Origin: a virus
Direction: 5' to 3' (one strand)
Length of the DNA stretch: 64,000 bases
IMG/VR virus record: IMGVR_UViG_3300023035_000005
Location: 92,708-156,707 of that record
This document shows positions 80 to 64,000 of the stretch, in pieces. A program made the translations under genes and the position numbers. Position 1 is the first letter of the stretch, and each line of letters opens with the position of its first letter. The notes beneath the pieces are model-generated. The model was given only the letters and a program-made list of their open reading frames with translations. It did not search any database and was not told the origin of the DNA.

Positions 80-3000
80 CTGTTGTGGTTTAACAGAGGG
101 TGGCTCCTCCGAAGGAAGGAAAGCTCCCTCTGAAGATTATGTGAATTAGGAAAATTCAATTGATATAGAGGTGACGATAATTATTAAAATCTTTTTAATA
201 ATTATGTCGACTAGACATAAGAGAGTGTTGGATTTGATTACGCGTCATAATTTATTTAGTTATAGGTTTAAAATAATAAAGATTTTTGTATATAAGCTCA
301 GAATTTAAATATTTACCTACTGTAACTTTATAAATACTTAAATGTTTAGCTAATTCTACATTGTTTTTAAATTTTAAAATTAAATTACCATTTAAATCAA
401 ATATTCCTACTCCTAAGTTATATTTATTTTTATTTTCACTCATTATAGCCTTGGTATTCTCGGTATGACTTTTACCATACATAGGATTTTTACTACCTGG
501 TTTACTGATTTTTAATTTAGATTCCTCAGTATGTTTATAACCCAAATTATTATGGGCGATAAGACTAAAATTATATAAAGTATTGAAATCAAATTTTGAT
601 ATATAACTAGTTTCTAGTTCAGTTAATGATTTATGACTTATAATTTTACTTTCATATGTAAAATACTCATAAATATATAATTTAAACTTATCTATACCAT
701 ACTTGACAAAGGCTTTTTGCATGGCTACATTTGAATTATTTTTATACTTTAAATGTTCATTAATTCTAATAAAAAAGTCTTTAGCACTACCAATGTATTG
801 CTTATTATTAATAGTGTTTACCAAAGAATAAATACCACCTTTTCCCTTTAATATATCCTTATATGATTTTATACCATCTTTGTCGAGCTTCGCACTAAAT
901 CTAGAATTAAAATCGGCTTAGGCCCAGGATAAGAACCTAAATGTGAAGGAGAATTAGAAGAATAATATTTACGACTATAAATTAAAGAGTTATCTAAAAG
1001 AGTTAAAGGTAAAATACCCCTACGCATATAACTAAATGAATTCTCAAATTTTACTAACCTAGATTTCACACAATTAAAAAAAACAAAAATGGGGGGGATA
1101 TAAAACCCCTATATGCTGGTAGGAAAAGGGACATAAAACTATATTTAATTTTGTATTGGTTTAAACCGATAAATTTTATTATATATCAGACCCGAATTTA
1201 AATACTTACCTACTGTAACCTTAGAAATACCTAAATGTTTAGCTAACTCTACATTATTATTAAACTTCAAAATTAAGTTATCATCTAAATCATAAATTCC
1301 TACACCTAAAGGATATTTATTCTTCTTTTCACTCATAATCGCTTTAGTAGCTTCACGATGTTTTATACCAAACATCGGATTTAACTCACCAGGTTTACTA
1401 ATTAAAGCTAAGGCTTCTTCAGTATGAGTTTTACCAAACATAGGATGATTATTTTTATCCTTATAATAACGAAAATAAGATAAACAATAAGAAGATTAAA
1501 CTTTAGAACACCTAGCCACCGAACATGGTCAAACCTCACTCGCACTCACTCTTTCATTTACAAAAATATTCAAAATAACTTACCGTAGGGGTCTCCGAGA
1601 TAACTTAAACTCAACTTTATTTGAGTCAAACACGGTTACTCCTTTGTTCAACTTAGCATTTATAGTTTGCGGTGCAATTTTAAAGTAATCAGCGCAGGAT
1701 TGGGAATCCTTAAATATTCTAAATTTTTCTGATACCTGAGAGGATAAGCAAGCTCGCGAAGCAGGAACAACCTCTTCAGCTAAAATATAGAAAAGCTGTC
1801 GTTTAACTAGCGAACCGCCTGTTAAAGAATTTATTCGTAAGCCATCTTGATTTATTACATATATATCCTTCATATTTATTACTTCATTCACCAGGTTCGA
1901 AGATATTCCCCTAATCTCCTCCCCTCCGGGAGATACGAAAGTATCGCTGCTTTCTATATGTTTAAATGAAGATAAACGGTAGTTATTCATTCTTCTACTC
2001 ACCTTAATTATTAACTCTTTACCTAATTTTGTTAGATGTTTTCCTTTATAAATTAAAGAAGCAATAAACACTCAATCTAAGAAATCTTTATATTTTTTTG
2101 AAGCAAAACTAAGGTCAGATAGAAAGGGTATAAGTGTATCCACTATATAACTTAAGTGGTTAATATGGAATTGAACCACGAGTTTACCTTTAGTTGTGCA
2201 TTTACCCTTATCATAAATAGAAGTTCTTTGACTAATTATTTCTAGATATTGAGAAGATGCTTTTAATTTTACATCCTCTATCCCATAAGAATCTAAAAAT
2301 TCTTTAATCGCATGAACTAAAGGGGCTTGAACAAAAGTAAGCCCAAGGCTGAAGGAAATACTTATATCTTTTGTATCGACAAGTGAGAAACAACCCTCTC
2401 CCTCCAGAAATCCTAAGAATCAGTAAGGAGTTATTCTTATTGTATGAGTAGAAGGCATTACAAAATCCACTCTTTTACTATTCATCTGACCTTTTAAGTC
2501 AGTTATTAACTTTAATTTTTCAGACATAGATAAAGATTTGTTAAATTTTATAGCAACTGCTTCTTTAAATCCCAAGTACTCTAAGTACTTTGTACCATTT
2601 AAAGGGAATTTATCAAACATAGGTATTAAAATATTTTTGATATCGTTAATCCTCTTCACATTCAGATGAACAACCTTTTTAGATATATAAATACTACCAC
2701 AATTCAATCTATTTTTTATAAACTCTAAAACACCAGTGTCATCAATATGAACCCCAATAGTTAATATAAAACTAATAGTATTTCCTTTAGAAATATCTAT
2801 CAAAAAACATCCCTCACCATCTACAAAACCTACAAATCATTCTAAAAATTCAGATTCCGTCATATCTCTAAATCTAACTTTAATATTGCTTAAATTTGAT
2901 GTATTTTTTAAAATAAGTTCATCTTGGTCACTACGAGACAGCGCAGAACTACCTTTTGTACTAAATATAAATCCTTTATTTTCCATTTTTTGTATAAATT

Positions 3001-6000
3001 TTTAATTACCTCCGTAGAGGATAGGGTTTTGTAAAAATCCATTCCATTTTACAAAACCTAACTCAGGTTAGGTTTTGTAAAAATCCATTTTACAAAACCT
3101 AACTCAGGTTCGCACTGAGTATTCGGAGGTTGAAGCTCCATGTTTTACCTGTAAACTATACTCTTAAAAAAGCATAAGATGTACTCAATTCATCGCAACA
3201 GCTGTGTGTTTCTATAAAAAAAAGTACATCACTATAAACTTTTGGTGACAAACACCAAGGAGTAGAATGGCACGGATAAGTATTAAGGTGTATAATTGAA
3301 AGAGGAGGGAAGAGAGTGGGCGAATTCAACCATCTTTAATTTGGCTTCTTCTGTATGTTTATAACCTAAAGAGCTTGTAGCTGTAGCTTTAAAATTCTAA
3401 AGATTATCAAAATTAAATCTCTTAATATAACTAGTCTCTAGATCAGTTAAAGCTTGATGACTTATAATTTTACTTTCATATGTGAAATATTCAAATATAC
3501 AAAATTTCAATTTATCTAAGCCATACTTAGCAAATGCTTTTTGCAAAGCCAGATTAGACTTCTTATTTTCCAAATGTTCATTAAGTCTTAAATAAAAATC
3601 TTTGGCGCTTCCTATATATTGATTGCCGTTTACTGTATTTATAAAAGAATAAATACCTCCTTTGTCTTTTAAGAATATTCTATAAGATTTAATACTATCT
3701 TTATCATTTAGATTATTAATAGTTAAAACTGGAAGAGGTAAATCAGATGATTGTAAATCAGAATTTGAAGTAGAATAATATCTATCACTAGCTTTCGTAC
3801 CAACTTTTCATCTAGATATTGTATAAAGATAACCACAGTTTGTAAGAACTAAAGGGTTCGCACCAATGGTAGAAACGCTACTATAGTTCAGCATATATGA
3901 TCCCATTTTTTATTAGTTGGCATTTACAAGCCAATTTGGACTATACCTTATCTAATATAAATACTTATATTAAATGATCACGTCTAGTCTCTGAAGGGTT
4001 TAACATTATATGTTAACTTCCCTGCTGATTGTCCTATTCTCTAATTAGGGTTTTCCAGCAATTTGTGATCTTTAATGAGACCAAATCTTATTAGTAGCCT
4101 CTGCTAAATCAATATCTATACTATCTAAGCATTCACCTTAGGTTTTCCAACTTGTCTTAACTAAAATATAGCTAAGGTTGTTCAAGGGATAGCAAGGTTG
4201 TAAATAATAGAGTATGAACATTCAATAGTTACATACTACAAACATATTTAGCTGTACTACCTTGCTTTCCCTCTTTTCTGCGAAGTAAACCACACAGAAA
4301 ATTTTATTTGGTGTATTTATTCATAATACTTTGAATATTTTTAAGATTATTAAATTGTTCTTCAGTCCATTTCCTCCGAAGGCGAAGATTTGCTTTTAAT
4401 TATATCAGCTGCTTTAACAAAAGATACGAAATCGGATTGTTTAGCGCTTTGAAGAGGATATTTTAGGAAAAAAGGTATAATTATATTATTCAAGATCTCG
4501 AAATTATTTAACTTCAAATCGACAGCATCGTTGTTTCTTTTTTTAACACTACCGCAACCTAAATAAGTTACTATTCTTTCCATTAGCAAAGTATCTCGGG
4601 AATGCTGAGTTATTTGAAAATGTAATCAAACCTTATAACTACTAGATAACTCAGGAGCCAGAGTGGACCTTTTCTCTACAGTAATAATATTAAAGCTACC
4701 TTCCCCATCTACGAATCCTACTACCCATTCAGGATGTATTTCTCTTTCCGGTACTTCTGGTCTCGGTTCGGGAACAAGATTTGGATATAATTCCTTCAAT
4801 TCTTCAGATATCCCTTTATTCAAATAATATCTAAGATTAAGAATCTTCATGAACCCTTGTTCACTTAAAGAGGGTTCCTCTTTAATAATTAATATAATTT
4901 GTCTAAATAATTCGAAGTCAGCATATTTTTTAGTTAATAAAGGATATGCAAGGAAATGAGGTATAACTTTCTCAAGTATATCACTTAGTTTACTAATAAT
5001 TAGCTTAGCGAAATTTTTATCGAAACTTATTACCCCTACGCCTCCAAAATACTCCTTAATACGATATAAAATATCTAAATCACGGGAATTCAATTTAATT
5101 TGAAAAACAGGTTGTAATTTTCAACCTAACCTGTATGCTTTGACTTTCGAAATTTTTATCACGAAGGATCCCTCACCATCAGTGAAACCTGTAATTCACT
5201 CAGGGTGAAGTAAAACCTTATTATGGGAATTTGTGGAACTATAGTGTCTTCTGGCTGCTGGTAATTTTCCCGCCCGTTCATTAAGTACGGGTTGCAATCC
5301 GTAAAAGAAACAAATTAAATCTCTAATAATATTCAAAATATAATTACAAATGTATATTAACATAAACATTGTAATTTTAATAACTTTAGCTGTAATATAG
5401 TTGCTAGCGAGGGCTGTGGATTTGTGACGATTAGCCTCTGCAAGATCGAAGGGCGGCCGATTAGTTTCTGCAATAGAACCTATAAAAAATATTATAAATA
5501 TAGGTAATAAAGGTAATATAAATCAAACAGCTCTTTGTGATTCTACATTTACAGTTAGATTTAAACTACCTGTTAACATAATTACTAATAATAAAGCTGA
5601 ACTTAATATTAGTTCATAACTAATTAACTGAGCAGTACTTCTAAGTGAACCTAAAAAAGCATATTTACTATTAGCACTTCCAGATTTGTTATTTTAATAC
5701 ATTTAATATTAATCCCGCACCTCGCGGTGCGGCTCAGACTAGGTTATGATCTATCTAATTTTTGTAGAATAGACCCCGAATACTCGTGGCAGCAAATTTA
5801 TATCTGCTAGTCGTTGAACGTTCCTCGCTGAGCGTGGTTTCGCTTCAAGTTGACTTAATATAATAAGTTATTCTTGAAATTCAATCGGTTTATTCTTAAT
5901 TACTCTCGCAATTAAGGGGCTTATCTTTTTATTTATTTAATGTGTACGCAACATGTATACGAAGAAGTGGCCACCTACAAGAAAAAAAAATACATTTTTT

Positions 6001-8337
6001 TTTCTTTTACTAGGTTATGCATCCGTAAAGGTGCGTAACTAAAATACTGAATTAGTATAATCACATTAAACCCCAATATTACATACTAAACTCTTTATAT
6101 GGATTAAGTACTCTGTTCCTTGTTTTTTTTTGTTAATAAAAAAAAACAAAAATGAAAAACCAGAATATTAATCTATATATCTATCTCTCAATATATCTAT
6201 TTTATCTATCTATTAAAACACCTCTCTGAAAAATTGCGTAGCTTGCAACTTCAAGAAAATATATCTATGTATGTACCGAAGTATAGGAGATCACCATAAT
6301 TAGTAAATCCATCAATACTTAGTTACAGATTTACCCTTTCTTAATTTTATCTTTGAACTCAGAGCTCATTTCTTTAGTTAGAAAGTAGACAGTAAGCTTA
6401 ACTTTTCTTAAGGCTACAGGTTTACTACTGTCTAAATTTCGATAGATAGTTGATTTATCTATACCTATATAGCTAACAGTAGATAAAATGGAGTCAAAAG
6501 GGCAATTGTTTATTAATTCTAGAGTATTAGCATCATAAACGTAAACTTTCGTGTTATAATTACGACTATTCGCTATTATCGGTCTTGCAGCAAGTAATTC
6601 TTTGCTTAATGACGCATCCAACTTTTTCTTGAAGAAATAAACTAACATATCACCTCGTTTAGTAGCTTTATTACTATTTAAATTACGAACAATTGTTCGA
6701 GAATCGACGCCAAAATAATTTGCAGTATCTAAAAGTGAATCGAAAGGCGCATTATTTATTAATTCTAGAGTATTAGCATCATAAGCGTAAACTGGTATTT
6801 TTAGACCTAGTTGCAAATCTCCAACCTTAGCTTTAAGAGTTTGAATTTCTTTGACACTTAGAGGTACTGAATATACATAAATAGCCTTCGATCCTGCAGT
6901 TCTTCCTTTGTCTAGAACTAAATCTAGAGTTGCTCTAGGTATTCCTAAAGCTTTAGCTGCTTGAGCTTTTGAAGCGAAAGGACTACCTATTAATAATTCT
7001 AAAGTAATAGCATCATACGCTCAAACTGGAGTCCTAACAACTCGATTCAATAGACCCTTAGGTGTGAGTTTTTTTGATTCTTCGTACATTAAGTTAAAAT
7101 CAGTAATAGGGTAATTAAAGAACAATTTACCTCTGTAAGGTATAGATGTGTTTTTATATCTACCTATCCCGGAAATAGGGTAAGATAAAGATCGGCTTGC
7201 CTCATTACTGCTCTTATATATAGTTGCTTGAGGATTTATACCTTTTTCTGTACATTCGTAAACATAAACGAGAGTATCTCTAGAGTCTAATACCTTATTA
7301 GTTTCTCTAAGATCCTTAAGTTTTAATAATAAGGTTTGTTTAATTACGCCTTCAGTTATTGATGAAGAGAAAACAGAATTAAGTATAGGTATATACTTTT
7401 GTAAGTAATAAGTTTCCCTTTCACCTAATTTAGCTAAAGGGCAGACCTCTAGGATGTGAATACTAAAATGCTCTATCCCTATTAGCCGTACGAAAAGATG
7501 GAATTTACTGGGGGATTCTGCTTTTGAGTGTTCAAATAATCTTTTTTTAAATAGATTTGTTCTCCCTATGTAATAAATATCAGGGTAATATTTGTACTCT
7601 ATAAGGTAAATTCCAAATTTGGAACCTCATTCTTTAAGGAATTTTGCTTTCAGTACCTTATCTGTATAGTTTAAACAAGAGCCCTTTATTAAGTCCCGAT
7701 CGAAAGGTATAACTGGAGCAATTCTATCTTTTAAAAGATCTTTGATATACTCGATATTCTTATTACTCTTATCCATATTACTATTATTTTGATAAGTGTG
7801 AAGAAAACATCTAGATATATTAAGATATTCTGAAGAATATTTGTTGTATCCTACTGATCTTTTGGTTAAGATAGATATAGGCTTAGATATACTAGAGAAA
7901 AAGTATTGAGTATTTTTAGTTTGTAAAATATTGGCTGGAAATAAAAACCCAGCTAATAGAATTCCGTAAGTGGCTAAAGATGATACGGCCAACATATATA
8001 ATATACCTAAATTAAAATCATTAATAGCTAAACCTGGTCCATAAGGAATAACACCATACCCTAATAAAGCAAAAATTAATGTTATAACAGGCCCTAAGAA
8101 AAACAGTACTATGTTAGCTTGTGTTGGGGCTACATATTCTTTTAATAGAAGTTTTAGAGCATCTGCAAATGCTTGAAGAAGTCCAAAATAACCTATATGA
8201 TTGGGACCTAATCTTCTTTGCATACTAGCCATCGTTTTTCTTTCTGCTACAGTCACATAGGCTACACTCAGTAGGGCAGGAACAATAACCAACAACACTT
8301 CAAGAATAGATATTAAAGTTGGAGGTAGATAATACAT
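7..8337 (-). CDS. nad1: NADH dehydrogenase subunit 1, spliced, continues beyond window start; exons 8337-7947, 5680-5433, 79-7
   Basis: Joined exons read MYYLPPTL...[16 protein letters not shown]...GILLAG|[23 protein letters not shown]...[12 protein letters not shown]|[24 protein letters not shown]; exons end in T and introns end in G. Confidence 0.95.
252..1069 (-). pseudogene. GIY-YIG homing endonuclease, frameshifted near 870
   Basis: [27 protein letters not shown], then NUMOD-like C-terminus. Confidence 0.8.
1145..1475 (-). pseudogene. displaced C-terminal half of the GIY-YIG ORF that begins near 3860
   Basis: ..[27 protein letters not shown] continues the [12 protein letters not shown] end of the 3325-3860 fragment. 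Confidence 0.75.
1580..2986 (-). CDS. LAGLIDADG homing endonuclease with own ATG, inserted in a GIY-YIG ORF
   Basis: Code-4 ORF with [10 protein letters not shown] and [10 protein letters not shown] motifs. Confidence 0.85.
3101..3165 (-). pseudogene. trnW: tRNA-Trp(UCA)-like element lacking the 3' acceptor strand
   Basis: AAGAGTATAGTTTACAGGTAAAAC A TGGAG CTTCAAC CTCCG AATA CTCAG TGCGAAC CTGAG. Confidence 0.7.
3325..3860 (-). pseudogene. GIY-YIG endonuclease N-terminal half with internal TAG
   Basis: [29 protein letters not shown]; TAG near 3397; start approximate. Confidence 0.78.
4350..5432 (-). CDS. LAGLIDADG endonuclease in frame with nad1 exon 2; extreme C-terminus frameshifted
   Basis: [10 protein letters not shown] and [10 protein letters not shown] motifs. 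Confidence 0.85.
5433..5680 (-). CDS. nad1: nad1 exon 2
   Basis: (W)[17 protein letters not shown]...PFDLAEA. Confidence 0.93.
5681..7946 (-). mobile_element. group I intron, nad1 intron 1
   Basis: Core at about 5700-5900 (TTCAACGACTAG..TAGTCT, P9 CCGCACCGCGAGGTGCGG); terminal G at 5681. Confidence 0.85.
6331..7946 (-). CDS. GIY-YIG endonuclease in frame with nad1 exon 1, with repeated C-terminal modules
   Basis: [14 protein letters not shown]; three VxAYDAxTLELIxxxPFxS-like repeats. Confidence 0.8.
7947..8337 (-). CDS. nad1: nad1 exon 1
   Basis: ATG to ...LLAG + T; conserved ND1 N-terminus. Confidence 0.95.
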
Positions 8338-8499
8338 TTTTTCAGTTTATATTTGAATTAATCCTTTCTACATAAAAAATATAAAAATTAAATTAAAAAT
8401 TAAGAGTAACAATAATTTGAGTTAATTACTTATTAGGTATATCTTACTCTACTTTTAAATTAATAAAAAATAGTGTTACTAATAAAACAAGAGCTTGCT

Positions 8500-8860
8500 A
8501 ATCCTGGCTTACTGCCTTATCCTCCACCTGGCAGGCTTCGCTGCAGAAGTCTGGGAGGCAGGAAGCCAGAAAAAGTAAACATACAAAACATCAGAGGGTC
8601 ACTAATTATTTTTTAGCCCTAGGCCTCTGGTGTAAAGCGTCAGCGCCACCAAGTTTCAGTCGTCGAAGACGACGCCCTCCTACGTAGTCAGGCAACTAAT
8701 AAAAAAAATACGTTTTTTTATAAGGCCCAGGACTCCCTCCTGCCTGCCTCCTACGAAGGAAGGCAGGAGTCCTGACTACGTAGGCAGCAGGATGGACTTC
8801 CTCCTGCCTGCCGTAGGAGGAAGGAGGAAGGAGCCAGCTTCGCCAGCTTCGCCAGCGTAG
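8500..8860. repeat. cluster of GC-rich dispersed palindromic elements
   Basis: Units such as CCTACGTAGTCAGG, CCTCCTGCCTGCC and GGAGGAAGG recur genome-wide. Confidence 0.8.
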
Positions 8861-8961
8861 GTTAAAATTAATTAAAATTAATTAAATTAATTTTTTCAAT
8901 TTATATTTGAATTAACCCTTTCTACATAAAAAATAAAATGACTAGTCAGTCCTTCGGAGGC

Positions 8962-9032
8962 ATTCCCATTTTAGAGTCGAACTAAAATCATAATATTTTA
9001 AATATTCTACTCTACCGTTGAGCTAATGAGAA
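8962..9032 (-). tRNA. tRNA with trnR(UCU)-type body but UAA anticodon; possibly a pseudogene
   Basis: TTCTCAT TA GCTC AACGGTA GAGT A GAATA TTTAAAA TATTA TGAT TTTAG TTCGACT CTAAA ATGGGAA T. Confidence 0.7.
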
Positions 9033-47294: not shown

Positions 47295-47365
47295 AGAATT
47301 ATGGAGGAATTGAACCTCAAACTTAAGATCTGCAATCAAAGTGTAGACCAACTACATCATAATTC
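47295..47365 (-). tRNA. trnC: tRNA-Cys(GCA)
   Basis: GAATTAT acceptor pairs with ATAATTC; TTGCAGA loop; GGTTCAATTCC T-arm. Confidence 0.85.
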
Positions 47366-48419
47366 TTATATCTTTTTACATTGTCACTAATAATTTTTAA
47401 TAATAAAATTACTGCTGCTGACTTCTCCTCCTTCCTGCCTCCTACGGCAGGAGGACTGCCTCCTGCCGTAGGAGGCAGGAGTAGGCAGGATGGCAGGGCA
47501 GGAGGAGGAATTTAATCCTATACTTCCAGCGCTGTTTTAAGTCGCAGATTTCAATTAAAGTATAGCTTTTAACAGGGTCTGAACCCATGTACCTTCAACT
47601 GTCTCGTTTTTCCCTACACTCTATTAAAGGAACTTATAAACCTTTTAATAGAGGAGATGCAGCAATTAAATAGTTAATGATTAATTAAATATAATAATCA
47701 ATCATAATGCTTAATCGGCTCCTCTTATAACTTTAAATACTAACTCATCAATTCATTACATTGATGATCGGTTTAACTACGCATAAATTGCTTGCATCTA
47801 AAGTTGTTCTCAGATTCTACACCTTACCATAAGACCTACTCGGGGGTGGGTGAGCTTTTACCTCAGTTCTCGCCTGCCATACTTCGTCAGGAGGAGTCCT
47901 TTTAGCTAAACAAATGGCTATCTTGGGCATAAGTATCATATTAATTTTATTAGATTAACTAAATAACTCTACATCAACAATAAAATTTATAAATAAATAG
48001 ATAGTTATAATTATCTATTTCTACCTATCATAAATAGATAAATATAATTCCCTGCGAAGCACCCCCCCCCCCCCCCTCCCCCTAACGAAACAAGAAAGCC
48101 CAGCTCGCTCTAGCGAGCGGAGGGCTTTTTTGTTTTTAATCACTAATAGGTTTATAAAATTATACCTAGAATTCCTCTCATTTCATCTTACAACGGTTAG
48201 CATATTCTTTATAGGTTAACCTAATCCACCGCCTGCTCGTCACAGACTGCGTCCATGATTGTGCGTGTTTACTCCTATTTTTATAGAGTACCACTTATCC
48301 TTTATAGGTCTATTATTCTCACCAGGTGGATAGGACTTATCCTATATAGGTCAACTTAACCCACCGCTTGGTTGGGGCTTCGCACACACGCTGCTTGGTT
48401 GGGGCTTCGCACACACGCT

Positions 48420-56200: not shown

Positions 56201-59200
56201 ATTTCAGACCTTCTAGTAATTGTTAAATTAACCATAGAATTTCTTTCATAAATTTTTCCTCAACCTAAAAATTCTTGTATCTTTAACATTAAACCCGAAT
56301 CCCTACTATGTTGAGGAAGAGAAAAACTAAGAGTAACTGCAAAACCTATTAAATGTGTAACATTTTTTCGAACTAAACATATAAAAGTACCCTCAGCTTC
56401 TATAAATCCTATTAATCACTTTTTATTAATAGCCCCCCTGCAGACGGCGACTTCCGTAGACAGCGGAGTCGAATAAACATTTACTTCAGGTCTTTGTACA
56501 GGTGTAATATCAAACTCTTTTTTAAGAATTTCATTTAAACCATTATTCATAGAAGCTTTATAAGCTAATATTTCTTTTAAACCCTCAATTTTTAAATGTT
56601 TACCTTGATTCATTAAATTTACAACTTCTTTAAATAACAGATAATCAGCTCTTTTTTTCGTTAAAAGAGGGTAATTCTCAAAATGAGGTATAATATTGTT
56701 TGTAATATCTTTAAGGGATCTTACTGTATAAATCACAGATCTATTTCCTATTTTATTATTTTTAATTTGAAGTGTACCAACTTGAAAATAATTTTTAATC
56801 TGCTCTAACAATAAATAATCTTTAATATGAAGATGTATGGAAAAAATAGGAACAACTACGTACCCTGCTTTATAATTATTATTTTTTAAAATAGAAATAA
56901 TAAAAGAAGATTCTCCATCAGAGAATCCCGTAATATAATAAGGATCTAGAATTAATTCTAGACCTCCTGCGTTTAGTCTCTGAGAGGCTTCGATAGTGGA
57001 AAGACTTCTAACCCCTGCCGATTGTCCCCGTGCCAGTGGGGTAGGGGCCCCACAGGTTTCACCCCCCCTGGGGGGGGAAACTATTACAATTTTCACGTAA
57101 ACAGTTAAAAAAATTAAAAATAAAACGTATGTAACTACTATTATAGGGGATATTCCAGCATTAAGCAGGATTTTTAATACCACGTCACCGTGATATGGTC
57201 CTAAGTGTTTAAAACCTCCTCAAATGACCGTTTAATTTTGTATAATTTTTAATATATACTTATATCCTTTCAAATATATTTAGACTATGTCTTAAATTTT
57301 ATTAAATGCGCTGTATATAGCTAACATTATAAAATCTAGGGGTTATCGTGTTGAGCTTATTGCTGGTTTAACTCACTCATTAGTCGTTGAACGCCCTTAA
57401 TTCATTTTAATAAACCGAATTAAGTTCCGCTACAAATAATCTAATAACCCGGAAGTCTAATTATGTTATTAAATGTTTTTGTAATTTTCCCCTTTTGCCT
57501 CTAAATAATAATTTTATTATATTTAAGGAGCCCATTTTACAGTTTAGGGTAATATAATTTACTATAACGTATAGAATTTTGTAAATTATTTAATCATTTT
57601 ATATATTCAATATATTTTAACCCTACTAATTTTCATATACTACCCTCCGGACGTCCTAGCACAGGGCCAGTCCTGGGCGTCCGAAGGAGGCTGATATTAT
57701 TTTCTAAAGACCTTTATTTCATAGCGTCCTTTATAAGGTTTAGTGTAATTTTTACTTAATTTAAGTTTCTCATATTTAAGAATTTTATCAGCATAACTTC
57801 CTATACCTTCGGCAGCTTTTCTTATTGAACTATATTCCGTGAAAACCTTAGTTTCTAAGTCAAGGACGGTTACTTTCATACTCTTCTTTTTGGCTAAAAC
57901 ATTTTTATTTAAATTTGCCAAATGCTCCTTTAATATAGCTCTAGTAGCCTCGCTATGTTTAACTCCTATTCTGGCAGCTTTTATTTTAGCTTTAACACTT
58001 TCTGAAAGAACACGTCCAGTTAAAGTTGCTCTAATTTTAGCTTTAGTCTCTTCTAAAACTGCAAAACCAGCTCGGGATCCGGCTATTTTTAATATATTAT
58101 ATTCTGGTTTTAAATAATCAAGATAAAATTGTTCTCTTTCAATAACATTTTCACTATTACAATATTCTAGTATCTCTAACCTGAATTCAGAGTATCCATA
58201 TTTAATTATAGATTTATAAATTATACTACGTTTAGCCTGACTTTCTATAAATCTTAAAGAATAATAGCTATAAAGACGTCGTCCTAAATCTAAACTAGAG
58301 CCAATATACATTTTCCCCGATTTATTGTGTACCCATCTATAAACTCCTGATTTTTTTCTATTGTTTTTAATTGCAATTTTTTTATTTTCAGAAGCGTTAT
58401 CATAAATAACTACTGGGGTTACATTAAAGCTAGAATTCGAAATACCTGGACATAATCCCTCCCCCGAACTGTAACATCGTAATTGAAAAATATTATTTAA
58501 TACTATGCTTTTTAATACTATGCTCTTTAATGCTAGGCTTTTTTTACATGTGCTTCAGTATTTCATGTTTTTTTTTAGTTTATCTACCTTCGTAAAGGAT
58601 AACTCTTGCGAGTGGACTCAGAGTCGAACTGAGTACTTGGAGGGTGAAGCCCCCTATTTTTCCCATTAGACTTTAAATTATACTCTTAAAAAAGCATATA
58701 TAAAGTTATTGATATACCTAATTCGAGGCGAGTAGTGCCTCATAAAACGCAAAACCTGTTTTATCTTCAAAAAAGAAATTAAGTACACCACTATTAATTT
58801 TTAGCAGAGTATCCTTCTAATAGATGTAAGCCTGAAAAAAGACCTGAAAAAAGAGAGCAATCATATTTTTAACTTTTTGTTTTACGATCAGTTTCAACCT
58901 TAAATCTAAAATTAAAGCCTCAAAGAACTAAATCTATATTATTTGAGGCACAAGCTTTAACTGCATACGTAGAATAGCGTTTAACTTTTTACACGTCTAG
59001 CCTTTTCACGTTTAATCTTTTCTTGTTGTTTTAAGATTCGCTTAAGATAATAAAAACCCTCCCTTTTAGACATAATTTTTCGAAAATCTTTTTTTACTCT
59101 TTTATAAGTAAGAGGGTTATCTTTGACAAACTGAACAACACCGGGATATAGTGAAGGACACAAAAATCCTATGAGTCAATCTTTTAAGGAAAAATTTAAA

Positions 59201-62090
59201 GGATGTAAGCCTTCAAAAGAAAAGAAATTTATAACTGTTTGTACATCAGATTTAGAACTAACCCAAAACTGATTGAAACTATTAGTAGTGTCTATTTTTC
59301 TATTAGTTTTAAACACTAGTTTGAATGCTTCAAACAAATTTGTATGTATTCTTTGTTTTAATTGAAAACAACCATCATTATTACTTTTAATAAAGAAAGA
59401 ACCCTCTGAGCATGAAAATCCTACGATTCAATTTTTCAAAAAATGTAATAATGTGTATCCATTTGCATCTTCAGGTAATTCAAATATATTTTCAATATTA
59501 TCTTTTGAAGGTAAATCATCAAACACTTTTATATCATTTTTTAGTATATGCATAGCTAGGTTAAATTGATTAATTCTAGTTTCAGTTAAAAAGAAGATAT
59601 TATTATGTATTAATAAAGGAAATAATACTTCCTGTAATTCAGTTCTATTTATTACTAATTTACAACTTGGACTTCTTATATCTTTATATACATTTAACTT
59701 ACCTAACTTTAGAGTAGAATGGATATATTCTAAAGTTGAAATATCTTCAGAATGTAAAGAAATAACTAATTTCATTGTTATGAATCCTTTAGTTGTTTTA
59801 GTTATTTGAATATAACCATCACCATCTATTAACCCTACTAAAAAAGCTAAAAAAGAACTAGGTATAGTAACATAATCTTTCTTATCTAATATTTTATTCA
59901 TTTTCTTTAAAGCGTTTTTATGAACATTACCTATTGTAGGTAATATTGAATATAATAAAACCATACTAATACCCAAAACTGTAAATTTTATTGACTCAAC
60001 TATATCTTGTCCAATTCATGGAATAGCACTAATAAGGTTTGTAATACAAAAATAACCTATCATAATTAAGTGGTTGTTTTAAATGAACGTGTTCAATTTG
60101 AGTTAAGAGTTTGTATCTTTATTTCAAAGAAGAGTAGACTTTTATTCTTTTTATATACTCAAACATAGTTTTATACCGGTTATGTATCTATGTGTATTCT
60201 ATTTCTACTACTAAGTATCCACATCCCCTGCTTGGTTCACTATGAAATAAGGGGAAAGGATACGAACCACTAACCTATACTTTTGTGCGAAGCAGGCGTA
60301 GCTGTAAATAGAATAAAACGATAAAAATAAAGATTATTCACCTTTTAATTCATAATTTCTACCGTAATTCATACCAGATTTCAAAGTTAAAACTTTATCT
60401 CACCCTTCTTGAGTTAGGTGGGCTTTGTCTTTAATTAAGAAAGCAGCTTTAACAAAATCTAGATAATTTAAATTTTTATCCCCGTATAAAGGATATTTTT
60501 GAAAAAATGGAATAATAATATTAAATATATCCTCAAATTTTGATACAACTACTACTTTACAATTTATATTACTAGTAACCAATGTCCCACAACCTAAACT
60601 ATAAAGGATTAAATTTAAAAGTTCTTTATCCTTTTCATGCTGAGAGATTTTAAATTTTAATTTTACGGTTTGCCCTAATTTTGACCCGAGGTGTTTTTGT
60701 GTATGTATCATAAAAGATCCTTCAGCTTCTGTAAAACCTGCAATTCAATGAGGATTTAAAGATTTAGGTAATAGATTCTCAAAATTTGAAGTTGAAACTG
60801 GTTTAATGTTAGGGAAACTTTCCGCTAACACTTCCGTCAACCCATTACGCATAGCTGCTTTGATAGATAAAATTTCGTAAAAACCTTTATCCTTAAGATG
60901 CTCTTTTTTGTTCATAATTAGAGCTACTTTTTTAAAAAATTCATAATCTTCAGATTTTTTGGATAACAAAGGATATTTATCAAAAAATGGTATTAAAGTA
61001 TTAACTATTTGGGGTAAAGATGAAACAATGTATGAGCAAGAATTATTTTTGCTCTCATAGATACCTCCTACTCTTCCTAAAACTTCTCTTATTTTGCTCA
61101 ATAACTCCTTGTCCTTAGAGTGTAAATGAATTTGAAAATTAAGGCTGATAACTCAACCTAATTTCATTCTTTTATCTCTTCTAAAAAAAACAGAAAAGCA
61201 CCCCTCTCCGTCTACAAATCCTGTGACAAAATAAGGATTTATGGTTAAGGGTATTTCCTTCTGTTCCATATTCGCTTTTTGGGTAGATATTCTAACATGA
61301 AAGTCTCTTACACCAAATAAAGTAATACATTTGACCACTTTACACAGTAAATATTTCAGATGTATACTAGGTTGAAGGCGAGGTAAAATCTTACTTAAAT
61401 AATAAGTGTGAGCACTCCTCCTTCAGAGGGAAGAAACCAAAATAAGAAGTAAATAGATTCTAAATACAAACTCAAAACCCGACACTTCCTCTTTTTCGTT
61501 CTTTCTTGTTCTAATTAAAAAATTAGACTCTGCGTCACAAAGACCTACGAATCATTCTATAAATTTTGTATCTAAAGATAACTCTGGTAATTCTTCATTG
61601 ACACCAGATGATAAAACATTAATCTCATTAGTTACACTATTGTCTGCGCAAGCGACCTTAGATTTGTAAAAGGTAGCTACAAAGTAATAATATAAATCTA
61701 AATAAATTTGAGAGTAATATAATAATATTGGTGATATTAAAAAAGTAATACATTAAACCTTTGTTTCTAACAACCCAGTATGAAGAATTTATTAACCTAA
61801 AATAAGGTTTATGCTTACGAACAATACTGAAATATTTACTGATATTAAAAAAGGAAGGAGGCGCGACTCTCCTTTCACTAAATTTATTTAATGGATTGGA
61901 CTATATCTTCATTTTCTTAACCCACATAACAAGTGTATTATTATGTAAAAAAAGTTCAATGTACCACGTATAGTCTCTGAGGGTTTTAACATACTATGTT
62001 AACTTCCCTGCTGATTGTCTTATAATCATAAGAGTTTCCAGCAATTAGTGGTATTTTTCTACAGCTATTACTTCGCTGTTTAACCGTAGC
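49822..62090 (-). CDS. cob: apocytochrome b, 5' part beyond window end; exons 62090-62083, 60046-59994, 57227-57212, 55082-54970, 52385-52226, 50209-49822
   Basis: ATV|[17 protein letters not shown]|FIWGGF|[20 protein letters not shown]|SSNPLG..GDSDNYI|[26 protein letters not shown]. Confidence 0.95.
50339..51832 (-). CDS. atypical LAGLIDADG endonuclease with AP2-like C-terminus, in intron cob-779 (intron 50210-52225)
   Basis: [10 protein letters not shown] and [10 protein letters not shown]; open in code 4 to TAG at 50339. Confidence 0.75.
52226..52385 (-). CDS. cob: cob exon
   Basis: [35 protein letters not shown]. Confidence 0.95.
52687..53484 (-). CDS. LAGLIDADG_2 endonuclease with degenerate motifs, in intron cob-619
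   Basis: [38 protein letters not shown]. Confidence 0.75.
53465..54969 (-). CDS. LAGLIDADG endonuclease in intron cob-619 (intron 52386-54969)
   Basis: [10 protein letters not shown] and [10 protein letters not shown]; [13 protein letters not shown]-terminal module. Confidence 0.82.
54970..55082 (-). CDS. cob: cob exon
   Basis: [37 protein letters not shown]. Confidence 0.95.
55188..56036 (-). CDS. LAGLIDADG endonuclease in intron cob-506
   Basis: [10 protein letters not shown] and [10 protein letters not shown]. Confidence 0.88.
   Translation of the reverse strand: MWKNNLKLRTTFYNSFKKNENLDNKGLRIYFLTYAYIVGLFEGDGYFSITKKGIYLLYEVGIELSKKDVQLIYKIKSLLGVGEISFRNRGEIEMVSLRIRNKNHLKEFILPIFDKYPMFSNKQYDYLRFRDCLTSNIIKYEELPPYTRGTESLNDIQSIINAPYFSSWLIGFIEAEGCFSIYKLKKDEDYLVASFDVSQKDAEILLSAIARYLSFTTAIHCDKFNCYKLKVTGVRSIENVIKFLKFAPVKLLGNKKLQYLLWLKELRTIDRYNKKIKIPSNY
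56023..57211 (-). CDS. second LAGLIDADG endonuclease in intron cob-506 (intron 55083-57211), in frame with the exon
   Basis: [10 protein letters not shown] and [10 protein letters not shown]. Confidence 0.85.
57212..57227 (-). CDS. cob: cob exon (16 nt)
   Basis: (F)IWGGF. Confidence 0.9.
57697..58566 (-). CDS. GIY-YIG endonuclease with own ATG, inserted into the LAGLIDADG ORF of intron cob-490
   Basis: [19 protein letters not shown]. Confidence 0.87.
58610..58687 (-). pseudogene. trnW: tRNA-Trp(UCA)-like element, degenerate
   Basis: AAGAGTATAATTT..GGGG CTTCACC CTCC AAGTA CTCAG TTCGACT CTGAG; 3' acceptor strand mismatched. Confidence 0.62.
58981..59993 (-). CDS. LAGLIDADG endonuclease in intron cob-490 (intron 57228-59993); native C-terminus displaced to 57537-57629
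   Basis: [10 protein letters not shown] and [10 protein letters not shown]. Confidence 0.85.
59994..60046 (-). CDS. cob: cob exon
   Basis: [17 protein letters not shown]. Confidence 0.93.
60334..61338 (-). CDS. LAGLIDADG endonuclease in intron cob-437 (intron 60047-62082)
   Basis: [10 protein letters not shown] and [10 protein letters not shown]; a further remnant ([10 protein letters not shown]) near 61400-61600. Confidence 0.85.
62083..62090 (-). CDS. cob: cob 8-nt micro-exon GCTACGGT
   Basis: Encodes AT(V); downstream guide GTAATAGCTGTAG pairs with both flanks. Confidence 0.85.
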
Positions 62091-63562: not shown

Positions 63563-63884
63563 TTTAAGTGTCTTGCATTCCCTTCACGTTTCCTCTTACG
63601 GCAGGAAGATGGACTCTATCTTCATCATATAATAAACTACCTGGGTGGCTAGCTTCGCTAAACCAATGGGGTAGGGGGGAGAAACTAAAAGAAAGCACGA
63701 GCTTTCCTGACTTCGTAGGAGCCCCCAAAACAGATTTTTAATAAAATATGAGTAACACGTATAGTCTCTGAGGATCCTACTTATAATATAGTTTATTATT
63801 TTGGTTTCCTGCGGATTGTCCATTTTGTTTTCACAAATCTTAAAGATTTTTACCGTTCCCCTGGGGCCCTGGAGGGGGCCCCCT

Positions 63885-64000
63885 CCAGGGCCAGGGCCAG
63901 GGCCAGGGCCAGGGCCAGGGCCAGGGCCAGGGCCAGGGCCAGGGCCAGGGCCAGGGCCAGGGCCAGGGCCAGGGCCAGGGCCAGGGCCAGGGCCAGGGCC
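63885..64000. repeat. (CCAGGG)n hexamer array running off the window end
   Basis: About 19 perfect copies visible. Confidence 0.97.

Follow-up and report, generated by a model that had tools for sequence, protein, structure and literature searches.

Free-standing, intron-less endonuclease genes of fungal mitochondria enter coding regions and bring with them a replacement gene end, as in rps3 and other genes. Plant mitochondrial t-elements are tRNA-like processing signals for RNase P and RNase Z that mimic the acceptor/T-arm part of a tRNA; both enzymes read the acceptor stem together with the T arm. Chimeric ORFs of plant cytoplasmic male sterility (CMS) acquire 5' regions from atp or cox genes through recombination, and GIR1, a catalytic lariat-capping ribozyme, precedes the endonuclease genes of twin-ribozyme introns in the nucleus.

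The two endonuclease genes considered here lie in a window of 64,000 nucleotides (the whole stretch of DNA that was analysed) from a fungal mitochondrial genome and are free-standing, intron-less cassettes with their own start, unfused to an exon (Table 1). They resemble free-standing homing endonuclease genes in having their own ATG and, as seen for cassette 1, no ribozyme core and a precise presence/absence site, and the insert in one relative (L023) is flanked by a classic duplicated cob C-terminus; however, the duplicated DNA in front of them is the region for 5' expression of an unrelated gene (trnW and the nad6 5'-UTR) rather than a displaced gene end, and this copy sits directly before the start codon and is common to LAGLIDADG and GIY-YIG cassettes. 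As with tRNA punctuation and t-elements, a tRNA-derived element lies just 5' of an mRNA, and the 3' end of the genuine trnW would set the nad6 5'-UTR; unlike t-elements, the copies retain the anticodon and T hairpins and have lost the acceptor stem. The arrangement recalls CMS ORFs in that a non-essential ORF would be expressed once recombination has placed it downstream of the 5' signals that belong to an essential mitochondrial gene, but the organisms are different, a chimeric coding part is not seen, and the module travels with mobile nuclease cassettes. Like GIR1, it places a structured RNA module, putatively serving expression, before an intron-borne endonuclease ORF, but the system is mitochondrial and nothing suggests catalysis. 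In the literature searched, no earlier account was found of a fungal endonuclease gene whose leader is a pseudo-tRNA or resembles a tRNA.

Table 1. Positions in the window of the two endonuclease cassettes, their leaders, and the host ORF of the first.
Feature	Position	Strand	Remarks
Cassette 1	1468..3323	-	1856 bp; leader, LAGLIDADG ORF, and 112-nt trailer; splits the nad1-intron GIY-YIG ORF
LAGLIDADG endonuclease ORF P0001	1580..2986	-	468 aa; NUMOD1-like tail at the C-terminus
Host GIY-YIG ORF in nad1 intron, N-terminal part	3324..3909	-	In-frame TAG at 3399-3397
Host GIY-YIG ORF in nad1 intron, C-terminal part	1145..1467	-	
Upstream box of copy 1, CAAAAGTTTATAGTGATGTAC, promoter-like	3224..3244	-	GATGTAC pairs with GTACATC at 3184-3178
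Spacer of copy 1, TTATGCTTTTTT	3166..3177	-	11/12 positions match ATATGCTTTTTT, which separates trnS from trnW in genuine loci
Pseudo-trnW(UCA), copy 1	3102..3165	-	5' acceptor strand present, as are the D, anticodon, and T arms; lacks a 3' acceptor strand that pairs
Duplicated small inverted repeat TAGGTTTTGTAAAATGG..CAAAACCTA	3025..3101	-	Occupies the expected place of the 3' acceptor strand
nad6-type 5'-UTR hairpin CCTC-UACG-GAGG, copy 1	3009..3020	-	ATG 22 nt downstream
Upstream box of copy 2, AAAAATTAATAGTGGTGTAC	58783..58803	-	
Spacer ATATGCTTTTTT and pseudo-trnW(UCA), copy 2	58610..58699	-	8-nt D-loop insertion; 3' acceptor strand mutated to TCCACTC
nad6-type 5'-UTR hairpin CCTT-UACG-AAGG, copy 2	58587..58598	-	ATG 20 nt downstream
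GIY-YIG endonuclease ORF P0002	57697..58566	-	289 aa; behind the cob-intron LAGLIDADG ORF (60078-58981)

A sequence-only reading of this DNA had described an insertion that splits a GIY-YIG ORF, the one in the nad1 intron, and this is borne out by contigs of runs X5 and X2. Because these contigs pass straight from 1467 to 3324 and leave out 1856 nt, the cassette is a real presence/absence insertion; the join restores an 18-residue reading of the split ORF, which sets the limits of the insertion given in Table 1. The X5 empty-site contig has a depth of 170 and 3 mismatches. This test applies to the copy 1 cassette and uses Logan contigs, the best run containing 0.17 of the words sampled from the window; the contig with the join is from an RNA library, and the type of X2, RNA or DNA, was guessed. 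A contig of run X1, also from an RNA library, covers 1242-3254, which is not proof of transcription. A group I or group II intron as the insertion was ruled out by the absence of an Rfam match to either core in 1468-3323, by the 3' end of the cassette being T and not the terminal G, and by the empty site in X2. P0001 belongs to LAGLIDADG_1 (Pfam, E 9e-30) and P0002 to GIY-YIG (Pfam, E 1e-7), in agreement with the earlier claim that one leader precedes two endonuclease families whose ORFs each have their own ATG.

The window contains just two copies of the leader by blastn, 76% identical along 83 nt (E 2e-12). Two occurrences of the motif TAAGAGTATA..TTCAMCCYY were counted, compared with 0 in 100 shuffles. 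The shared homology extends from a box, AAAARTTWATAGTGRTGTAC, at the upstream limit to CCTYTACGRAGGTA immediately 5' of each ATG. The trnW(UCA)-like element that had been placed about 115 nt before the ATG at 2986 was recovered in copy 1 by the Rfam tRNA model, which matches 3102-3159 on the minus strand with 30.7 bits (gathering score 29), the element ending at 3102; copy 1 is without an acceptor stem, because the alignment is limited to model positions 7-64. Its anticodon loop is CUUCAAC on a paired stem, giving the anticodon UCA, and 3/7 acceptor pairs are present. One 46-nt copy of the inverted repeat is missing in X1 and X3 contigs, where 3023 is joined to 3070, and the repeat is present once in L002. 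The copy 2 element (58687-58610) has no Rfam match at E<=10; it has the anticodon loop CUUCACC on a paired stem, again with anticodon UCA, and 4/7 acceptor pairs. The T arm is present in both copies.

The source of the leader is found in relatives. A pattern scan of metagenomes returned 32 loci, mostly genuine fungal trnW genes, and in the five loci L012, L021, L035, L040, and L043 the order is trnS(gcu), ATATGCTTTTTT, trnW, 5-10 nt, the hairpin TAT CCTTTACGAAGG TA, 21-23 nt, and the ATG of nad6. The genuine trnW genes score 58-60 bits where scored, with an intact acceptor, and the nad6 of the genuine loci has 87% identity to that of Nemania diffusa. Published Xylariales mitogenomes have a tRNA cluster between rns and nad6 (PMC6140425, PMC11404375). 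X5 contigs aligned to 3102-3176 continue into trnS on one side and into ACTCTTG..TATCCTTTACGAAGG on the other, where the genuine junction is seen again. The endonuclease leaders have 82-97% identity to the genuine junction (copy 1 has 87% to trnW plus spacer) and copy, in order, the spacer ATATGCTTTTTT, trnW(UCA), the short 5'-UTR of nad6 (hairpin CCUY-UACG-RAGG), about 20 nt rich in A, and the start codon. The leaders are ectopic, collinear copies of the trnW-nad6 junction native to Xylariales-type mitogenomes, the junction being read in relatives, with nad6 outside the window. Derivation of the element from trnW(UCA) is supported, and the alternative suggestion that the element is a scar came nearer the truth than the processing model did; it is not the scar of a homing site in trnW, however, but a collinear copy that takes in trnW and the 5'-UTR of nad6 as far as the start codon. 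The same LAGLIDADG+HTH family is native to the neighborhood of trnS-trnW-nad6 in a Xylariales-type mitogenome, since in L043 such genes, with 31-37% identity to P0001, flank these three genes. Elsewhere in the window, no exact match to the nad6-type hairpin was found; a one-mismatch match at 6020-6031 is probably due to chance. A MAFFT alignment hinted at trnS(gcu) as the source of the upstream box and stem, but this candidate was rejected when an nhmmer profile of the upstream parts of the endonuclease leaders found nothing on trnS.

The leader precedes the nad1 LAGLIDADG gene in the window and in L002 and L003, and the cob GIY-YIG gene in the window, L004-L009, and L023; L023 has it in front of a third cassette as well, whose LAGLIDADG of 473 aa lies in the 3' end of cob. 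The cassettes insert into coding DNA, namely the ORF of another endonuclease in nad1 and cob, and the 3' end of cob itself in a relative. L032 has a pseudo-trnW before nad6, with trnW positions 1 to about 65, a divergent 3' acceptor strand, the hairpin, and an ATG about 45 nt further on; this duplicate has the same architecture as the leaders, but it stands before nad6 and not before selfish nucleases in nad1 or cob introns.

The elements of the leader have not been retained equally. Seven acceptor pairs of seven are present in five genuine trnW genes, versus 3-5/7 in seven pseudo copies, and the damage varies, with point changes in copy 2 and unrelated hairpin inserts or a replaced strand elsewhere. 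The T and anticodon arms are retained in seven pseudo copies, and the anticodon stems are maintained by compensatory changes, including in L004 and L006. The UACG hairpin of the UTR is intact in 14/14 distinct copies, with a compensatory switch between C4-G9 and U4-A9 whose intermediates are absent, and it lies 13-24 nt from the assigned ATG, or 19-24 nt without L002, which has a second ATG about 22 nt away.

These patterns bear on the proposal that the trnW mimic is working punctuation, RNase P and RNase Z cutting at its borders and freeing the endonuclease mRNA from the intron. It would be in keeping with the retained T and anticodon arms, with scores of 39 bits for L002 and 34.7 bits for L009 over the full Rfam model, and with the genuine locus, where a cut at the 3' end of trnW would leave precisely the short 5'-UTR of nad6. 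Punctuation by tRNAs does take place in the mitochondria of filamentous fungi, according to the passages of PMC8979003 that cite Breitenberger 1985 and Burger 1985. Release by these enzymes is nevertheless poorly supported, because acceptor pairing is lost in every endonuclease-linked copy. Moreover, copy 2, both L023 leaders (L023a/b), and L032 score too low for Rfam to report them, and ARAGORN recognises neither these nor copy 1; L004 and L006 have lost the D and T arms yet keep the leader; L001 lacks the tRNA part and hairpin, and L010 the whole leader. Cleavage within the intron would break the nad1 or cob precursor as well. Working punctuation is therefore judged improbable.

Another explanation is pure hitch-hiking, in which the leader is a functionless flank from a former home at trnW-nad6 and the copies are similar only through recombination. 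LAGLIDADG relatives do adjoin trnS-trnW-nad6 (L043, L039), the leader is missing in some orthologues, as noted, and small inverted repeats are freely gained and lost inside it (contigs; PMC6140425). There are also signs of conversion: the L032 copy and the leader of the GIY-YIG gene in L023 (L023a) share 100% identity across 80 nt, and the L002 copy shares 97% with genuine trnW even though the L002 ORF is 25% diverged from that in the window. In the W1/L002 pair the leader modules have 90-95% identity versus 74.6% for the ORF; among the GIY-YIG orthologues, however, the ORF has 81-90%, the leader modules 72-95%, and the upstream sequence 61-69%, so that conservation of the leader does not exceed that of the ORF. 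Predicted folding energies do not surpass those of shuffled sequence (z -1.5 to +1.3) and are uninformative. As far as these comparisons of sequence go, conservation of the leader may stem from gene conversion and not from selection. Decay is uneven, however: the UTR and anticodon hairpins survive with compensatory changes, while the intervening sequence can no longer be aligned and acceptor pairing has gone. The spacing between hairpin and ATG stays similar, the leader stops at the ORF start codon in 3/3 cassette types and two nuclease families, and conversion from the genuine gene should restore the acceptor strand too, which it never does. A purely passive origin of the similarity is thus rather unlikely, if less so than punctuation.

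The upstream box is common to all endonuclease leaders, and in L012 and L021 the same motif occurs some 50 nt 5' of rnl. Promoter consensuses have been published for Sordariomycete mitochondria, and the box fits that of N. crassa, in the form quoted in PMC8979003, TTAG(A/T)RR(G/T)(G/C)N(A/T), at 10-11/11 positions (copy 1, 10/11). The box is not enriched in the window, where the three exact matches are the two leaders and one site inside a cox1-intron ORF, and none was found before nad1 or cox1 in the window. This putative promoter may add a transcription signal to the leader.

The reading that probably explains these observations best, drawn from comparative sequence evidence, is that intron-less endonuclease cassettes captured host expression signals. 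The junction would have been acquired by recombination beside trnS-trnW-nad6, where the LAGLIDADG+HTH relatives reside, and the leader then handed between cassettes and partly homogenised via gene conversion. The cassettes would exploit the nad6-type translation start context of hairpin, spacing, and ATG, so that a free-standing ORF could be translated independently of the frame at its landing site, and the upstream box may contribute a promoter. The pseudo-tRNA is not a canonical RNase P/Z site, because the acceptor stem is always broken; the tRNA part would have been disarmed, possibly because the nad1 or cob precursor would not survive cleavage at that point. A stronger and more speculative form of this, which we consider doubtful, is that the whole leader is a portable expression cassette composed of a promoter, a disarmed tRNA-Trp with its anticodon hairpin, and a translation signal from the nad6 5'-UTR, the anticodon hairpin being retained as a protein-binding or structural element. 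If it were true, LAGLIDADG and GIY-YIG genes would be transcribed and translated alone wherever they land, even inside other endonuclease genes, and a portable module would be exchanged between nuclease families.

In two nuclease families and three cassette types, one leader is traceable, nucleotide by nucleotide, to a host tRNA and 5'-UTR. This explains a class of tRNA-like matches within introns, which annotation pipelines might list as additional tRNA genes. The UACG hairpin, some 20 nt 5' of the nad6 ATG, is a candidate signal for mitochondrial translation or stability, and the upstream box is a possible promoter motif of Xylariales. The leaders would be an example of selfish genes capturing, and then trading, the expression signals of their host.

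The window belongs to a fungal mitochondrial genome, translated with code 4, and its minus strand carries, in order, cob, cox1, a tRNA, and nad1. The endonuclease reading frames of the nad1 and cob regions are listed below.

Endonuclease reading frames of the nad1 and cob regions
Feature	Position	Strand	Remark
GIY-YIG ORF of the nad1 region, N-terminal part	3909-3324	-	about 1.86 kb apart from the C-terminal part
GIY-YIG ORF of the nad1 region, C-terminal part	1467-1145	-	
LAGLIDADG ORF (468 aa) between the two GIY-YIG parts	2986-1580	-	Pfam E 9e-30
GIY-YIG ORF of cob (289 aa)	58566-57697	-	downstream of an intron LAGLIDADG ORF

The sequence-only reading held that a trnW(UCA)-like element is shared by the leaders of the nad1 LAGLIDADG gene (copy 1) and the cob GIY-YIG gene (copy 2), and this was borne out by a partial Rfam match and by the homology of the two copies. 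Copy 1 matches the Rfam tRNA model at 3102-3159 of the minus strand with 30.7 bits (gathering score 29), in an alignment limited to model positions 7-64, and its loop CUUCAAC gives the anticodon UCA. ARAGORN did not call this element, and the copy 2 element (58687-58610) had no Rfam match. The copies are nevertheless homologous (76% over 83 nt, E 2e-12), the homology reaching upstream to the box AAAARTTWATAGTGRTGTAC and downstream to CCTYTACGRAGGTA, approximately 20 nt before each ATG; a search of the window found exactly these two copies. The variable regions of both copies (3116-3120 and 58631-58635, minus strand) share an A in place of a T, with AATACTCAG and AGTACTCAG compared to AATTCTCAG in genuine genes. 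The change gives UACUC, the complement of GAGUA in the 5' acceptor strand, and this pairing is included in the predicted fold of copy 1; it may reflect exchange between the copies, or chance.

Metagenome contigs were scanned with the pattern TAAGAGTATA-N(8-32)-TTCAMCC-N(7-9)-CTCAGT, which gave 32 loci. Most of them are genuine fungal trnW(UCA) genes whose acceptor stem is intact. Five loci (L012, L021, L035, L040, and L043) share the order trnS(gcu), ATATGCTTTTTT, trnW, 5-10 nt, TAT CCTTTACGAAGG TA, 21-23 A-rich nt, and the ATG of nad6; these trnW genes reach 58-60 bits where scored, and the nad6 is 87% identical to that of Nemania diffusa. In published Xylariales mitogenomes, the main tRNA cluster is located between rns and nad6 (PMC6140425, PMC11404375). 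The endonuclease leaders parallel this junction part by part (spacer, trnW, hairpin, A-rich spacer, and ATG), with 82-97% identity over the spacer and tRNA, and by the same comparison are nearer to the genuine junction than to one another. Contigs from a wood-decay metatranscriptome (X5) that match the pseudo-tRNA extend one way into the 3' end of trnS and the other way into ACTCTTG-TGAGTTAT-CCTTTACGAAGG, and are the genuine trnW-nad6 junction of a close relative. The gene table of the Monilinia laxa mitogenome has the block trnK-trnG-trnD-trnS-trnW twice, one copy ending immediately before nad2 (PMC7424523), so the S-W end of the tRNA cluster has been duplicated before genes in other fungal orders as well.

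Public-run contigs were aligned to window positions 1000-9000. An X5 contig links 1467 to 3324 with 3 mismatches across 337 nt, and a contig of another run (X2) makes the same join. The joined sequence reads as a GIY-YIG linker with no interruption, which places the insert at 1468-3323 (1856 bp). No group I or group II core was found in it with Rfam, and its final base is not G. This cassette is a real insertion without an intron, and the same LAGLIDADG gene occupies the same site in the relatives L002/L003, from an NCBI assembly, and L001, which is a TARA contig. The GIY-YIG ORF that it splits has an in-frame TAG at 3397-3399 (minus strand) and appears degenerate even when the insertion is not counted.

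In the cob intron, the LAGLIDADG motif FS(F)EGLHPL is present inside the ORF and again as a remnant just before the leader box (58820-58860 and 59215-59235, minus strand), a doubling that suggests two successive insertions at this site. The stretch of approximately 45 nt that immediately precedes the nad1 ATG (TTTTTTATGTAGAAAGGATTAATTCAAATATAAA..) is also doubled (8330-8377 and 8885-8935, minus strand). One copy closely follows the tRNA at 8962-9032 and the other is just before nad1, with about 500 bp of GC-rich repeats between them; the nad1 5' leader therefore seems to have received an insertion that duplicated its flank. The window ends in a long (GGNCCN)n microsatellite with an open (GP)n frame (63596-64000).

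The leader is found before endonuclease genes in several relatives: before the nad1 LAGLIDADG in L002/L003 (tRNA part 39 bits), and before the cob GIY-YIG in L009 (Hypoxylon sp., 34.7 bits), L004/L005, L006-L008, and L023. L023 has it also before a third cassette, a 473-aa LAGLIDADG+HTH gene inserted in the 3' end of cob (4399-7396). A complete cob C-terminus precedes this gene, and a diverged duplicate of the C-terminus comes after it, a textbook case of an intron-less endonuclease replacing a gene end. In L032, the same pseudo-trnW lies ahead of nad6, and over 80 nt it shares 100% identity with the GIY-YIG leader of L023. L001 retains the box alone, and L010 is without the leader. Two LAGLIDADG+HTH genes of the same family as the window's LAGLIDADG (31-37% identity) occur at 153-4800 of L043, a 129-kb Xylariales-type contig, one in the trnD-trnS spacer and the other directly downstream of nad6; the first is also present in L039 (2458-5160). 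Since these members flank trnS-trnW-nad6 in L043, with one in L039, the family resides beside the donor locus. L039 itself has a genuine trnW and hairpin, then an unknown frameshifted ORF region in place of nad6.

All seven acceptor pairs are present in five genuine copies, while seven pseudo copies have 3-5 of the 7. The damage varies by lineage: copy 2 has point changes (TCCACTC for TACTCTT), and the acceptor is broken by unrelated hairpin inserts in copy 1 and L002, both leaders of L023, and L032. These inserts resemble small inverted repeats of Annulohypoxylon (PMC6140425). One 46-nt insert copy of copy 1 is missing from two runs. The anticodon stem is paired in every copy, with compensatory changes, and persists in L004 and L006, which have neither D nor T arms; T stems are unbroken wherever they exist. 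Each of the 14 distinct copies has an intact UTR hairpin, either CCUC-UACG-GAGG or CCUU-UACG-AAGG, and none is intermediate between the two. The hairpin lies 13-24 nt upstream of the assigned ATG (19-24 nt in all except L002). RNase P and RNase Z recognize the acceptor/T-arm helix. The earlier proposal that these enzymes cut the tRNA mimic to release the endonuclease mRNA finds little support, because the part that both need is exactly the part lost. What is kept and lost would be consistent with ORFs in need of independent translation having captured the translation start context of nad6, and also with a duplicate tRNA that may be tolerated inside an intron only once it is uncuttable. Several observations oppose a functional reading of the leader: there are signs of conversion (the L032/L023 identity and the leader-to-genuine identities), the leader is missing or reduced in some orthologues (L001, L010), its conservation in the GIY-YIG set is no better than that of the ORF, and folding energies are uninformative.

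Boxes similar to AAAARTTTATAGTGATGTAC are common to all endonuclease leaders, and the genuine trnS-trnW spacer has no such box. Derivation of the box from trnS was tested and is unsupported. The same motif lies approximately 50 nt upstream of rnl in L012 and L021, and it agrees at 10-11 of 11 positions with the Neurospora crassa promoter consensus quoted in PMC8979003. In the window, the box was not found before nad1 or cox1. The tRNA ahead of cox1 (47295-47365) has, about 12 nt upstream of it, a box-like AAAAATTATTAGTGACAATGTA (47377-47398, minus strand) that is similar to the leader box and the published consensus. A promoter role for the box is a possible lead rather than a finding.

Intron-less endonuclease cassettes with duplicated host gene ends, tRNA punctuation, and duplicate tRNA pseudogenes are all already known. 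The literature searched gave no account of two endonuclease families with a common leader copied from a host tRNA and 5'-UTR.
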